Part shown: in pieces, positions 30,001 to 36,000 of the stretch
Layout of the letters: each line of letters starts with the position of its first letter
Position numbering within the stretch: the first letter of the stretch is position 1
Assembly: GCF_048403405.1 (NCBI RefSeq)
Contig: NZ_CP183137.1
Strand: one strand, 5' to 3'
Length of the DNA: 44,716 bases
Origin: Escherichia coli
GTDB taxonomy: Bacteria; Pseudomonadota; Gammaproteobacteria; Enterobacterales; Enterobacteriaceae
Made by a program: the position numbers

Positions 30001-33000
30001 ACCATCACCGGCACCGCGGGTGACCACCCCCCCTGCATCCAGCTGGCCCGGGTTACCAAAATCCAGGGTGGCGACCTGCCCTGCCTTAAAGGCTGAGCAG
30101 CCCTGAACCGTGGCACCGGACTCATACAGACGCACAGTGAAGTCACGCGGAGGCACAGACGCCCCCGTGGATTTGCGGTAAGTCCCGAATGTCAGCCGCC
30201 CACTGTTGCCGATACTGTCCGCATCCACCACCACATGACAGGCCGAAGCCACCACGTCAGCACTGAATACGGTTTTCTGAACAGAAGCGTTGACCCCCCC
30301 CCGACCAGAAGGAACAGAGAGAAATAGAAAGTTCGCATCTACTTGCCCCTCCCTGAATATTTTTAGAAAAACCTTTCCTGCTCCCCATAATATGAAGCGA
30401 GCTGTGATACTATCTGGTTCGTCCGAAAAAGACGGCCCAGCGCAATACTAAAATAACTACTGTTTGCACCATATCGTTCACAAGCAATTTTCCTGCTGTC
30501 TCCTAAAACGAGATAATCATGAAGAGCATTAATAATTTTAATACTGTGCACAGAAGAGAGTTCAATTAATAAATCAAAAGCAACTTCAGATACAAACCCT
30601 GGAATTAGCATTTTGTTTTTTTGCCCCTTTATTCAGGGATTTGTTTTTATTTTCCATTAAGACACCCGCGAATTTTCCCATAAAACCAAGAATGCTTAGG
30701 GGCAAAAGATATTTTTGCCTATTCTAGCAACAAAAAAACACATCGCAATACAAACACAACCAATCAAGAAAAAAGAAACATACAAAATTATCACCCAAAA
30801 ATAGAACCCATTAGAGGACAAAAACCAACAAACACATCAAAAATAACAATACCTAAACGTAAAGAAAAGTAAATTTAATACTTTACGCTATCTAAAAAAT
30901 AAAACAAACGATGAAAATAAAAACAAAAAATTAACAATTCAAATCAATAAAAACATAAATTTCAACAAGTTATATTACATGTTTTTCATCAATCAGTGGT
31001 GTCAAACCACTTTTTCAGATAACACATATCGGATTTTTATATTAAAAAAACAGAGAATATGTTATTAATTTACGCACCAAGAACAACAAAAACACAACCA
31101 TCAGAAAACAATACAAAACCAACAACCCAACAAAAAAAACACAATAAAGACACACCACACCACACCAGAGGCAACAATTAATAATTTCACATCTTGAAGG
31201 CTGTGAATCTTTCATAGATAACACACACCTCGAGTAGGCAGCCTGACGGCTGCGGCTTGTCATGGTCTGCAATTACCGTTATAAAAACAGGAAATATCAT
31301 TGTCTTTCAGGTGGTTATATGGCCCGTTCAGCTAAACCCCGTAAACGTAAACCCGCCTCTCAAAGAAGCAAACTTCCCCGCTATGTTGTGAAACTTCATC
31401 CGGATGATTTTTTTGACGAAGAAGACGCAGAAGTTCTGCGCTTTGATAGTTTTGACGATGCCGTTGAATGCTGCGCAGACCTGAATATTCCGTTCTTTGT
31501 GGATGAGGGAAACAAAAAGCTGGTCTTCTGGTTTGTTCGTGTCGATGACGAAGGGTATCCGGAAATAGCCCGCTGCACGGAGCGGGAGTTTGCGAACATT
31601 CTTGCCGGTATCAGCGCCGGCGGTATGTACTGTCCGGAATGCGGCATGGTTCACTGGCCGGACGGAGTCACCCCGCCCTTCTGATGCTTCTCCGTTTTGC
31701 CGATATTTTTCAGCAGGGAAACCGCTGGCTTAACTGGCTGGAGAAACAACCGGAAGGTTCAGTCCGTCCGATGGTAATTGAATCAGTGACAAAAATCATG
31801 GCCTGCGGGACTACACTGATGGGCTACACGCAGTAGTGTTGTTCATCACCGGACTGTTACCATACAAAAAAGGTCTGCTTCCGGTGTAAAAGCCGCTCCT
31901 GTCCGCACTGCGGGGTGAAGGCTGGCGCACAGTGGATACAGTATCTGCTGAGCCTGGTCCCCGACTGCCCGTGGCAGCATATTGTGTTCACACTTCCCTG
32001 CCAGTACTGGTCCCTGGTGTTCCACAACCGGTGGTTACTGGCAGAGATGAGCCGCATTGCAGCGGATGTGATACTGGAAATCTGCCATCAGGCAGATGTG
32101 GAGCCGGGGATATTCACGGTGATCCACACATGGGGGCGTGACCAGCAGTGGCATCCGCATATCCATTTATCGACAACTGCCGGTGGTGTGACGTCGGGCC
32201 ACACCTGGAAAAATCTTCATTTATACGCCCGTAAGGTGATGAGCATGTGGCGCTACCGGATAACGCGGCTACTGTCCCGGAAATACCCGGAGCTGGTAAT
32301 ACCGGATGAACTGGCAGTGGAAGGAAACAGCAAACGGGACTGGAATCGCTTCCTGGACACGCATTACCGCCGCGGCTGGAATGTCAACATATCCAGGGTG
32401 ATGGATAACGCCACACATGTGGCAGTGTACTTCGGCTCTTACCTGAAAAAGCCACCGGTGCCGATGAGTCGGCTGGAGCATTATGCCGGTCAGGATGAAA
32501 TCGGTCTGCGTTACAACAGTCACCGTACAAAACGGGAAGAATACCTGTTGATGAGTGGAGATGAGTTCATGGAAAGGTTCTCCTGGCATGTAGCAGATAA
32601 GGGGTTCCGTATGGTGAGGTACTACGGTTTCCTGAGTCCGGTGAAGCGCCGCTTACTGGAAGAAGTTGTGTACGTCATAACGGAGACGGTGAGAAAAACG
32701 GCGATGCAAATCAGGTGGAGAGGGATGTATCAGAGGTTACTGAAGGTTGACCCGCTGAAGTGCATTCTGTGCGGAAGTCAGATGCGTTTTACGGGGCTGA
32801 AGCGGGGTTACCAACTGGCAGAGCTGGTCCTGATGCATGAGCGACTGGCACGACAGCAGGTGTGCGGCAGAGAGTCGCAGAGGGGAAGTTGCATTTTACC
32901 GGAAACGGAGCAAAAAACCGCCATTCATACCCTGAATCAATCAGAGCCATCCAGTTTAATCGTCGGTTCCGTTCATATGGAGCAAAAGTGGTGGAGCCTG

Positions 33001-36000
33001 TTTAGGATGCTGTTTACCCCATTGTTTATCTTGACTGTATCGTCCTGAAAGTTCGTCAGGACAGGGAGTGTCAGAATACTGACGACCAGCAAAAACTGCT
33101 CTCGCTCTTCTGTTATAATACCACTACGTTACAACTCTGAGATCCCACTATGAAACCTGATGAGAACTCCGTCGATAACAACGATCTGCTGCACAAAATG
33201 ATTACCCGTACGGACAGTTATCTGAATTATGCCAATACAAAATCAACAATCATCATCACCTTTATTACGGCTCTTATTGCTTTTGTCGGTGCGCATGCAG
33301 GTAACGCCATTCATTATCTTAATGAGCAGAACTACCCTGAACTGATCATTATTTTTAAAATATTGCTTCTGATAAATGCTGTGATGCTAATCATCGGATT
33401 TTACCATGCAGGAAAATCAGTTATGCCTTATACACGCCCCAGCGCTAAAAAGAACATTTTCTCCTTCATCGATATCATCCATCATTGCCCTGATGAAATT
33501 ACTTATACACAGAATATTATGTCCATGGACAAGGAAAAACTAGCAGAGTCCATGATTTCATTGCAGTACAATTTATCAGCTGGTCTGGTGAAGAAGTATG
33601 AAATGCACCGGAAAGCCATTTATTCTGTCCTGTTATCACTGATTCCTTTATTTATCTGTCTCCTTATCCTACTATTTGTTTAGGTAATTTCATGAGAAAT
33701 AATTTCAAGGATCTTTTTGGCAAAGCTATATTGGATGTCAATCGCGAACTGATGAAAAGTGAGTTACGGAAATCGTCAATATATGCCGATACACAGAACC
33801 GAATGCTCCATGAGAGTATGAGTGAAAGGTGGCGGAATGATTCTGCTGACGGGTACATTGCCCTCAGCCGTGAATCCATAGCTCAGGATGAAATGCCGGT
33901 TCTTATTAATGACGTAAAACAAGAAATTAGGCGAATATTCGAAAAATATGGCAAAGTAAATGAAACTATTGGTTGTCATCCTGATTTTTCCCATCTGGAA
34001 AACACTCAGAACCAGAGCGATGGTTATGCCATTACTATGTTTTTTGATATTGCCGGCTCAACAAAACTTGGAAAAATCTATGGTCCAAGTACTACATTTA
34101 ATATCAAAAATACGGTAATAAAATACGTGATCGAGATCATTCAAGCATTTGACGGACATGTCCATCGTATTATGGGAGATGCTGTAATGGCTTTTTTTCG
34201 TAGCAACAAAAAAGCACAGTTTGGCAGAGAAATGGACAGTGCTATCGACGCCATTAATGCAGGCATTTATATACTGGAATTTATGGAACAGGTTGTCAGG
34301 CCAGCGCTGGGGGATGCCAGAGCCGAACACCCCATCGGTGTCAGAATAGGCATCGATTATGCGAAAAAGAAAGAGATCGTCTGGGGAAATTATGGCGTCT
34401 CCGGAGCATTTGAAGTCACTGCAACCTCTTATAATGTGGACGTTGCCGCAAAACTGCAACAAGCTGCCGGAACCGATAACATTATGATAGGTGAAAATAT
34501 GAAGGAACTTCTGGGCTTAGGTGATGAATATCTGTCCGTTCCCTTCCGTTATATTAAAGATGAAAACGGTAATGAATTCAGACGTTCCTATCCCTATGTC
34601 CGCCCCAATTACCGTGTCAGGGGAGAACAAATAAATTACAGACAATATCTTCTAGATAACAAGGCATATTTCAGGTTCCTGCCCTATGGCCTCAAGAACA
34701 GTAATATCTGCGTTAGCCTGACCGCAAAACGTGGTGATGTCTGCAATCAATATTTTTGCCCCTGCTCAGAAAGTCTGGATAAAGGAATGTCTCTAACATT
34801 TCATATTACCTACACTGGATCACTACAAAGCTGCCTGACTGTTAAATCTGTCAAACAAAACACTGGCCCCGATGCCCGGGCACATAACGCAACTTCACCG
34901 GTTACCCGAATCAAAGAAATGCAGTATTATAATGGTGCCTGGCATGCGGATGTCAGTGAATCAACAAGGTATCATGGACTTCATCATATGAAACTGACCG
35001 TTCTTGATGAAAAAAATAATGAACTGGATGAAACAGTATTCAGTCTCTATATCAGATAATACTGTTGTCAGTTAATCTGAAACCCAGCTCTGAAAGAGTT
35101 GGGTTTCAGTACATCACAAATACAGTTCCTTTGATTTCACCTAATTATTAAAAAACAAGGAACAACAAAGTATTAAATTTTCCCCCTTCCTCCACACTTA
35201 GGACAGGGAGTGCCAACTCCCAAAGCCGAAATGGAAAGGGATTTTGAGAAATCTTTTTCCTGATACGACTCAAATACTGCTTTTTGTTTTGAAATAGTAA
35301 TCAAGAAATCTTTATGTGCCTCTGAGCGTATATCCCCCCCATTTTTCAATACTTCAGGATGTTCGTGTTCTAGGGCCAATAATAGTTCCTGCATTGCCTT
35401 TTTTGTATTTAAACCTAAATGGGGTCAGTTTGGATATCGAAAATTATTGTACGTTAAGGTTGTTTTTTGACCTTGTCGATCTTAACTGGTCTCAAACGAC
35501 GAAACTTACCTGAAGTCGGTATCCGGTTGTTTTTCCAGATATAATCGCCTGTCAGATTGATATGTTCCCAACCTAATGGTGATAAATGCGATAATAGTTG
35601 AGCATTTATTTTCATGCCCTTACGCTTCAGAGCATCAACAGCTCTTTCCATGTAAACTGTGTTCCATAAGGAAATAGCCGCCGTCAATAAAGTCAATCCA
35701 CTGGCGCGATAACTTTGATTTTCCGGTTTCCGATCTCTAATCTCCCCCAATCGATGCATGAATACAGCACGGGCCAGAGCATTACGGGCTTCTCCTTTGT
35801 TCAGCCCGGCCTGGACACGTCGCCGCAATGCCGGATCACGGAACCAGTCCAGCATAAACAATGTTCGTTCTATACGGCCAATCTCTCTCAGAGCTTTAGC
35901 CAACCCATTTTGTTTGGGGTAACTGGCAAGTTTTCTCAGCATCAGGGATGCTGTCACTGTTCCCTGTTTTATTGAGGTCGCCAGACGTAGCACTTCACGC

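Follow-up and report, generated by a model that had tools for sequence, protein, structure and literature searches.

The region at 31230-32993 of the window (the whole 44,716-nucleotide stretch of DNA that was analysed) is very probably an IS91 relic that can no longer function or move, carried by an IncFII plasmid of E. coli; its transposase gene tnpA is a pseudogene with an old amber allele, and its oriIS end has been lost. IS91 has been studied in depth as an insertion sequence that moves by rolling-circle transposition, and E. coli plasmids with virulence or resistance genes often harbour decayed copies of it. The first-pass annotation had reported an IS91-family transposase whose only visible lesion was an in-frame TAG, and had offered recent inactivation or dependence on read-through as explanations. 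The features on which our reading rests are listed in Table 1.

Table 1. Features of the IS91 remnant and its surroundings (window coordinates)
Feature	Position	Strand	Remarks
Orphan IS91 oriIS end	15263..15312	+	IS91 positions 1785-1830 plus GAAC target; adjoins fmt'/def
terIS end, intact	31229..31253	+	CTCG at 31229-31232; hairpin GCAGCC-TGAC-GGCTGC at 31238-31253
IS91 remnant	31230..32993	+	Covers positions 1-1768 of the 1830-bp IS91
orf121, intact	31319..31684	+	121 codons; TGA shares one base with the tnpA ATG
tnpA pseudogene	31684..32871	+	Canonical 395 codons plus stop position; from alignment and domain matches
Amber TAG replacing Trp51	31834..31836	+	G-to-A transition at 31835; TGG in all non-amber copies examined
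Private Cys59-to-Tyr change	31858..31860	+	TGC to TAC; effect uncertain
Lost natural stop	32869..32871	+	TGA to AGA; gives a spurious 59-codon tail to 33048
4-bp deletion site	32891..32892	+	The 4 bp are present in pCREC774-3 and intact IS91; 3' non-coding region of the element
Truncation point	32993..32994	+	IS91 positions 1769-1830 (oriIS, 62 bp) absent
IS1414 (IS256 family) transposase gene scrap	33005..33064	+	60 bp, internal; from similarity search; abuts truncated IS91

Results

Identity and mosaic structure of the element

As a reference we used a 1830-bp intact IS91 copy on the E. coli ETEC1706 plasmid (NZ_CP122917.1), which stands for the canonical isoform V1 (X17114); it is exactly 1830 bp long and terminates ...CCTATCGAT, followed by GAAC. 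A published criterion assigns elements to IS91 when they are at least 95% identical to it in nucleotide sequence across the entire IS (PMC13181058). The window copy is 95.9% identical to the intact copy, but over the 1768 bp of positions 1-1768 of 1830 only, and its truncation there makes it an IS91 remnant rather than a complete isoform. It resembles canonical IS91 in its terIS, in the one-base overlap between orf121 and tnpA, and in the domains and motifs of TnpA (Zn_Tnp_IS91 and Y2_Tnp with HUH and YxxxY), and differs from it in the Trp51 amber, the lost stop, the 4-bp deletion and the missing 62 bp at the right end.

Identity varies along the remnant, which is mosaic: the central ~1 kb is near-identical to the canonical isoform, while the flanks are 91-95% identical and, in contrast to canonical IS91, the 5' and 3' parts derive from a non-canonical isoform. 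All four allele combinations (4/4) at sites 31758 and 31835 were found among IS91 copies, a sign of recombination. A sequence search of the PDB for a solved structure from the IS91 transposase family gave no matches.

Lesions in tnpA

Translated in one frame, 31639-33048 contains one internal stop, the TAG at 31834-31836. With this codon repaired, the predicted TnpA matches Pfam Zn_Tnp_IS91 (residues 17-104) and Y2_Tnp, as well as NCBIfam transpos_IS91, which bears out the identification as an IS91 transposase. As the TAG is codon 51, it falls inside the zinc-binding domain, in agreement with the zinc-finger-like N-terminal region described initially, and the proposed comparison with homologues identified the replaced sense codon as TGG, which encodes Trp51 in 6 of 6 aligned non-amber copies. 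The catalytic motifs lie 3' of the amber, the HUH motif (HPHIH) at 32152-32166 and the tyrosine pair of YFGSY at 32428-32442. Thus, the domains of an HUH/Y2 transposase are recognisable, but the ORF that should carry them uninterrupted is broken at codon 51, and termination there would remove 345 of the 395 TnpA residues, including the HUH motif and both catalytic tyrosines. Re-initiation at the next in-frame start, GTG 31915, seems implausible: no ribosome-binding site is present at a workable spacing, and the product would lack all zinc-domain cysteines.

The amber is not the only lesion, as had been thought. In addition to the 4-bp deletion and the missing final 62 bp, the copy carries private amino-acid changes and has lost the natural tnpA stop, reading AGA where all 8 other copies with sequence at this site have TGA. 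This change extends the apparent ORF through the IS1414 scrap to 33048, and the end assigned to the gene at that position is therefore a stop-loss artefact. Its assigned start at 31639 also had to be revised, to the canonical ATG at 31684, which lies within the TGATG overlap with orf121. We considered the private Cys59-to-Tyr change as a second knockout through loss of a zinc ligand and dropped it as uncertain. At this position one IS91 isoform has Gly, and the second IS91-family transposase of the window has Pro in the alignment, which makes it probable that Cys59 is no zinc ligand. The tnpA substitutions private to the window lineage, small in number, comprise five non-synonymous changes and one stop loss versus two synonymous changes.

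The same locus is present on the E. coli plasmid pCREC774-3 (NZ_CP183144.1), which is 99.98% identical to the window over 44.7 kb, with a few indels. The insertion site, the TAG, C59Y, the AGA and the truncation base are all the same; unlike the window, pCREC774-3 retains 4 bp (CGTC) at 32891/32892. The pseudogene status of the gene was already known, as the public PGAP annotation of this near-identical plasmid flags ACKVDO_RS27640 as a pseudogene ("internal stop; incomplete; missing C-terminus").

Loss of oriIS

In IS91, oriIS consists of two subterminal palindromes followed by a target tetranucleotide, GAAC/CAAG on the strand shown. Homology in the window stops at 32993. The first palindrome is halved there and the other is missing altogether, as are the end and its flanking GAAC/CAAG tetranucleotide. 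The lost 62 bp hold oriIS, the end at which rolling-circle transposition starts. Transposition assays with mini-IS91 need the last 82 bp at the right end as well as the flanking tetranucleotide (PMC13181058), from which we infer that the window copy would not be mobilised even with TnpA supplied in trans. For the same reason, a full-length protein could not move it.

The sequence from 32994 onwards was considered as a Tn3-family inverted repeat; the similarity search instead returned the internal scrap of IS1414. This scrap contains the end of the spurious ORF and a hairpin at ~33042-33062. Of the end hairpin originally described as intact, the left-end terIS hairpin at 31238-31253 stands, while the hairpin at ~33042-33062 belongs to the IS1414 fragment and is no IS91 end.

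The orphan oriIS at 15263-15312 is what remains of a second IS91 copy in direct orientation. Two directly oriented copies are favoured over one IS91 split between 15263-15312 and 31230-32993 by circular permutation or inversion. The 16 bp of IS91 positions 1769-1784 occur in neither segment, which counts against a split single copy, and p11A_p1, where a mini-IS91 sits at the fmt' junction and a complete TAG copy is present as well, shows exactly the two-copy arrangement.

The amber allele on other plasmids

We counted codon-51 alleles with a 55-mer test. TAG was found in at least 37 complete E. coli plasmid records, each deposited separately, and TGG in at least 450 (62 + 388). On the local haplotype TAG accounts for 37 of 99 records, the other 62 being TGG, so the allele is not rare there. 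All 13 PLSDB records with TAG are from E. coli. The allele occurs in three contexts: a fae-like fimbrial operon, def/fmt' and T6SS-IS3'. Like the window, p11A_p1 (NZ_CP049078.2), T6SS-adjacent copies such as that of pE700481_123 and the fae-adjacent NZ_CP141737.1 carry TAG on the CAG-TAG-TGT haplotype. They differ from it in their flanks and in their secondary lesions, among them frameshifts, truncation by IS3 and another stop ahead of the HUH motif. All nine amber copies that were aligned and translated carry such extra, context-dependent lesions; a tenth, known from its PGAP annotation alone, has further lesions as well.

These counts bear on the origin of the TAG. A sequencing or assembly error might be suspected, as the few indels that separate the window from pCREC774-3 imply small errors in one or the other; since the identical codon recurs in 37 separate depositions from different countries and hosts, the chance that it is an error is negligible. 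That it occurs in so many records, within three contexts and in IS91 copies of diverged, recombinant background, indicates that the amber is old. It is thus very unlikely that the window holds an otherwise intact, still mobilisable IS91 with one fresh nonsense mutation, as the suggestion of recent inactivation would have it. The single internal stop in 31639-33048, the intact orf121 and terIS and the near-identity of the central ~1 kb to canonical IS91 fit such an event, but the natural stop and the 62-bp right end are gone, and gene conversion from a canonical copy accounts better for the central near-identity. In the reading that we prefer, the amber would have arisen on a non-canonical IS91 isoform and spread through plasmid descent and by recombination or gene conversion among copies of IS91; every amber lineage would later have gained further lesions of its own.

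Could leaky termination or a suppressor tRNA instead allow the amber to be read through, giving low and regulated transposase? The TAG is common to many copies, including the 37 of 99 on the local haplotype, and the frame is open 3' of it in the window. Conservation of the stop, expected for programmed read-through, is not what we see, as all non-amber copies examined have TGG at codon 51. Nor is the downstream sequence constrained: every TAG copy inspected has more stops, frameshifts or truncations, and the window lineage shows no sign of constraint. A tRNA scan of the whole window found no tRNA genes, and wild-type E. coli is not known to possess a dedicated system for decoding UAG. With oriIS missing, the product would also be unable to act on the window copy. 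We therefore regard a read-through-dependent gene as extremely unlikely, and the decayed relic with its old amber allele remains the preferred explanation.

In contrast to the window copy, several amber copies are full-length (1825-1830 bp) and keep both ends. Some of these occupy sites that differ on both flanks, so TAG elements may have transposed with help in trans and not just spread by hitch-hiking or recombination. We consider it quite unlikely that the codon-51 amber marks a non-autonomous IS91 sub-lineage that went on transposing with TnpA provided in trans by intact copies in the same cell and whose relics, the window copy among them, still express Orf121 as a brake on IS91 in trans; if true, such mobilisation would explain the sites that differ on both flanks.

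terIS and orf121

The only parts of the element that are still intact are terIS and orf121, and Orf121 may still be produced. The window copy has the features expected of the IS91 terIS, a CTCG cleavage tetranucleotide and a subterminal palindrome (as defined in PMC13181058). The upstream 121-codon ORF is full length, as first described, and its junction with tnpA, TGATG at 31682-31686, shows the one-base stop/start overlap typical of IS91. Because both parts are intact, some residual activity is possible, either expression of Orf121 or termination of another IS91 at this terIS.

Published work shows that both genes are under the control of Porf121 and that Orf121, besides inhibiting TnpA, enhances the recognition of terIS (PMC13181058). 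The remnant might accordingly be retained for a function, with Porf121-orf121 still yielding Orf121 that damps IS91 in trans, or with transcription entering the adjacent Pycsar genes, which lie ~150 bp downstream in the same orientation and are not separated from the remnant by any terminator-like site. We judge this quite unlikely, despite the full-length orf121 and its canonical junction. The changes in orf121 private to the window lineage are three non-synonymous versus one synonymous and thus show no constraint, the Orf121 variant carrying A63E, T93N and T110M, and IS91 occupies one place in the plasmid record, leaving no other copy to regulate. A consensus scan of 31100-33300 found no sigma-70 promoter-like sites, and terminator-like sites were at chance level.

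Discussion

The IS91 copy in the window holds an old pseudogene allele in decay; it is not an otherwise intact element that was knocked out recently, and its transposase gene does not depend on read-through. The finding is an ordinary one and matters little in itself; its main yield is a set of corrections, namely that there are several lesions, that oriIS is missing and that the ORF limits were wrong. As it stands, the IS91 remnant cannot mobilise the neighbouring fimbrial or Pycsar genes. The occurrence of one amber allele across dozens of plasmids and in three contexts illustrates recombination among IS91 copies.

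The amber codon truncates the transposase of an IS91 copy

Translation of the frame at 31639-33048 confirmed a single internal stop, the TAG at 31834-31836 recorded in the first-pass annotation. With this codon made sense, the product matched Pfam Zn_Tnp_IS91 (residues 17-104) and Y2_Tnp (142-321), as well as NCBIfam transpos_IS91. In megablast searches of complete E. coli genomes, the element matched 2266 records, with ~96% identity to typical intact copies labeled 'IS91-like element IS91 family transposase'; as judged from its DNA, the element is IS91 itself. The upstream orf121 is full length, as had been noted, and its TGA shares one base with the tnpA ATG at 31684. 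Since this overlap is a conserved IS91 arrangement (PMC13181058), tnpA starts at 31684 and not, as first annotated, at 31639, an in-frame ATG inside orf121. Counted from 31684, the amber is codon 51, placing it within the zinc-finger-like region as proposed, and the predicted product is cut to 50 residues instead of 395. Tyrosines Y249 and Y253 (in YFGSY) lie far 3′ of the amber, as does the HUH motif HPHIH (residues 157-161).

Comparison with homologues identified the replaced codon as TGG (Trp), present in all six aligned non-amber copies (one canonical IS91-like copy, four non-canonical isoforms, and mini-IS91 panel sequences). The amber thus represents a G-to-A transition at 31835. In the other IS91-family transposase of the window, a distant relative, Tyr occupies this position.

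The window copy lacks its right end

As defined from copies at different insertion sites, intact IS91 is exactly 1830 bp, from TCGAGTAGG... to ...TTCCTATCGAT, followed by GAAC or CGAG. The window copy (31230-32993) corresponds to positions 1-1768 and diverges thereafter. The absent 62 bp account for most of the 82-bp right end (oriIS); for mini-IS91 to transpose, this end and the tetranucleotide flanking it are reported to suffice (PMC13181058). Folding of the intact end revealed that the truncation point falls within one palindrome, while a second lies wholly inside the missing 62 bp. Eleven bases past the breakpoint, an IS1414 fragment begins that shares 98% identity with hundreds of E. coli IS1414 copies and is probably a trace of the event that removed oriIS. 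The hairpin at ~33042-33062 is part of this scrap and does not represent an IS91 end.

The natural tnpA stop, TGA in 8/8 other copies covering it, is AGA in the window (32869-32871), and only for this reason is the frame open to 33048. The spurious tail contains a 4-bp deletion (32891/32892) relative to both the near-identical plasmid pCREC774-3 and intact IS91. Thus, contrary to the first-pass annotation, the amber is one of several lesions. Relatives carry Gly or Pro in place of Cys59, which leaves the effect of a private Cys59-to-Tyr change (31858-31860) uncertain.

We counted private substitutions of the window lineage against an 11-copy panel. For tnpA, the eight changes comprised five non-synonymous (P3L, V30M, C59Y, F180L, and R377Q), one stop-loss, and two synonymous; orf121 had three non-synonymous (A63E, T93N, and T110M) versus one synonymous. 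These counts, though small, are consistent with neutral decay and at odds with preservation of gene function through amber read-through, the alternative raised in the first-pass annotation, which nothing supports. Wild E. coli is not known to carry a dedicated UAG decoder, and no tRNA gene was found within the window. Moreover, because oriIS is missing, even suppressed full-length TnpA would be unable to start transposition on this copy. Megablast placed IS91 sensu stricto at one site in the plasmid record, with no other copy, and the window's other IS91-family transposase is only 34% identical to IS91 TnpA.

The amber allele is old and shared among plasmids

We searched with a 55-nt stretch that has the A of TAG at its midpoint; because each flank is only 27 nt long, every 28-nt megablast seed must cover that A. 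This query matched 37 E. coli plasmid records and, in PLSDB, 13 plasmids, all from E. coli. A canonical-isoform TGG query matched 388 records. In the E. coli complete-genome collection, the non-canonical local haplotype (CAG-T?G-TGT) was represented by 37 amber versus 62 TGG records, so that, among sequenced plasmids, over one third of this IS91 sub-lineage carries the defective allele.

Eleven fetched amber records fell into three contexts. In the window, pCREC774-3, and NZ_CP141737.1, the copy adjoins a fae-like (F4/K88-type) fimbrial operon with an identical left junction; in 70-kb p11A-type plasmids, it adjoins def/fmt′; and in the third context, it lies between T6SS tssB plus an IS3 fragment and an ISKra4 or other IS91-family fragment. 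The TAG was identical in every fetched amber copy whose sequence was read, and the extra damage differed by context: a second stop and IS3 truncation in NZ_CP141737.1, a second stop directly before the HUH motif in p11A_p1 (NZ_CP049078.2), and frameshifts in the T6SS-context copies. The amber codon is therefore genuine, but old and common to other plasmids, rather than a recent inactivation of an otherwise intact gene.

Similarity between the window copy and other isoforms varied block by block: some stretches within the central kilobase matched the canonical isoform at 100% identity, and the flanks at 91-95%. All four allele combinations at sites 31758 and 31835 occurred among copies, indicating that copies have recombined or undergone gene conversion, or that mutation has recurred; such events suffice to explain one allele on several backgrounds. 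Full-length TAG-bearing copies may also be mobilised by TnpA in trans, as some retain their two ends and have different neighboring sequence on either side.

Neighboring elements and cargo

A two-gene Pycsar anti-phage system (33150-35059, +) lies ~150 bp 3′ of the truncated IS91, hemmed in by IS scraps and a truncated TnEc1 transposase gene. Virulence-type cargo lies left of terIS, the IS91 left end. At the orphan oriIS junction, p11A_p1 has a 267-bp mini-IS91 (sequence L008, 592-858) joining positions 1-107 to 1671-1830, a MITE-like terIS-oriIS deletion derivative. The second IS91-family element has its 3′ 351 bp duplicated in tandem; each unit has an internal GAAC at its start and the element's right end (...TTTCCTATACGT, then GAAC) at its finish. 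The arrangement suggests that this right end was fused to a target-like GAAC within the element's own tnpA.

Features in and around the IS91 remnant (window coordinates)
Feature	Position	Strand	Remarks
Inverted copy of part of second IS91-family transposase gene	7936-8374		440 bp; 94.5% identical to 39010-39448
Orphan IS91 oriIS end	15263-15312		Positions 1785-1830 + GAAC; adjoins truncated fmt and def
S6-family (SPATE) autotransporter peptidase	within ~16000-31200	-	pCREC774-3 annotation
EAL-domain protein	within ~16000-31200	-	pCREC774-3 annotation
Complete F4/K88-like fae fimbrial operon with PapB/FocB regulator	within ~16000-31200	-	pCREC774-3 annotation
orf121	31319-31684	+	All 121 codons intact
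IS1414 (IS256 family) transposase gene fragment	33005-33064		60 bp, internal; 536 E. coli records matched
PycTM effector	33150-33683	+	Pfam PycTM
Pycsar cyclase	33692-35059	+	Guanylate_cyc and AGS_C domains
TnEc1 transposase gene	35454-37844	-	Tn3 family; truncated
Second IS91-family element	37918-39905	+	Intact
Its upstream ORF	37918-38190	+	90 aa
Its TnpA	38171-39379	+	402 aa
Its tandem duplication	39200-39905		100% identity between units
IncFII repA	~41395-42267

Implications

The window copy is a decayed, immobile IS91 remnant, of which terIS and orf121 survive. Any residual role, with Orf121 as a trans inhibitor or through transcription into the adjacent Pycsar genes, is speculative. The window is 99.98% identical over 44.7 kb (1 mismatch and 5 gaps) to pCREC774-3 (NZ_CP183144.1), an IncFII plasmid of an E. 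coli urine isolate from Taiwan, on which PGAP calls the gene a pseudogene ('internal stop; incomplete; partial in the middle of a contig; missing C-terminus'). The finding is an ordinary one, already reflected in public annotation.
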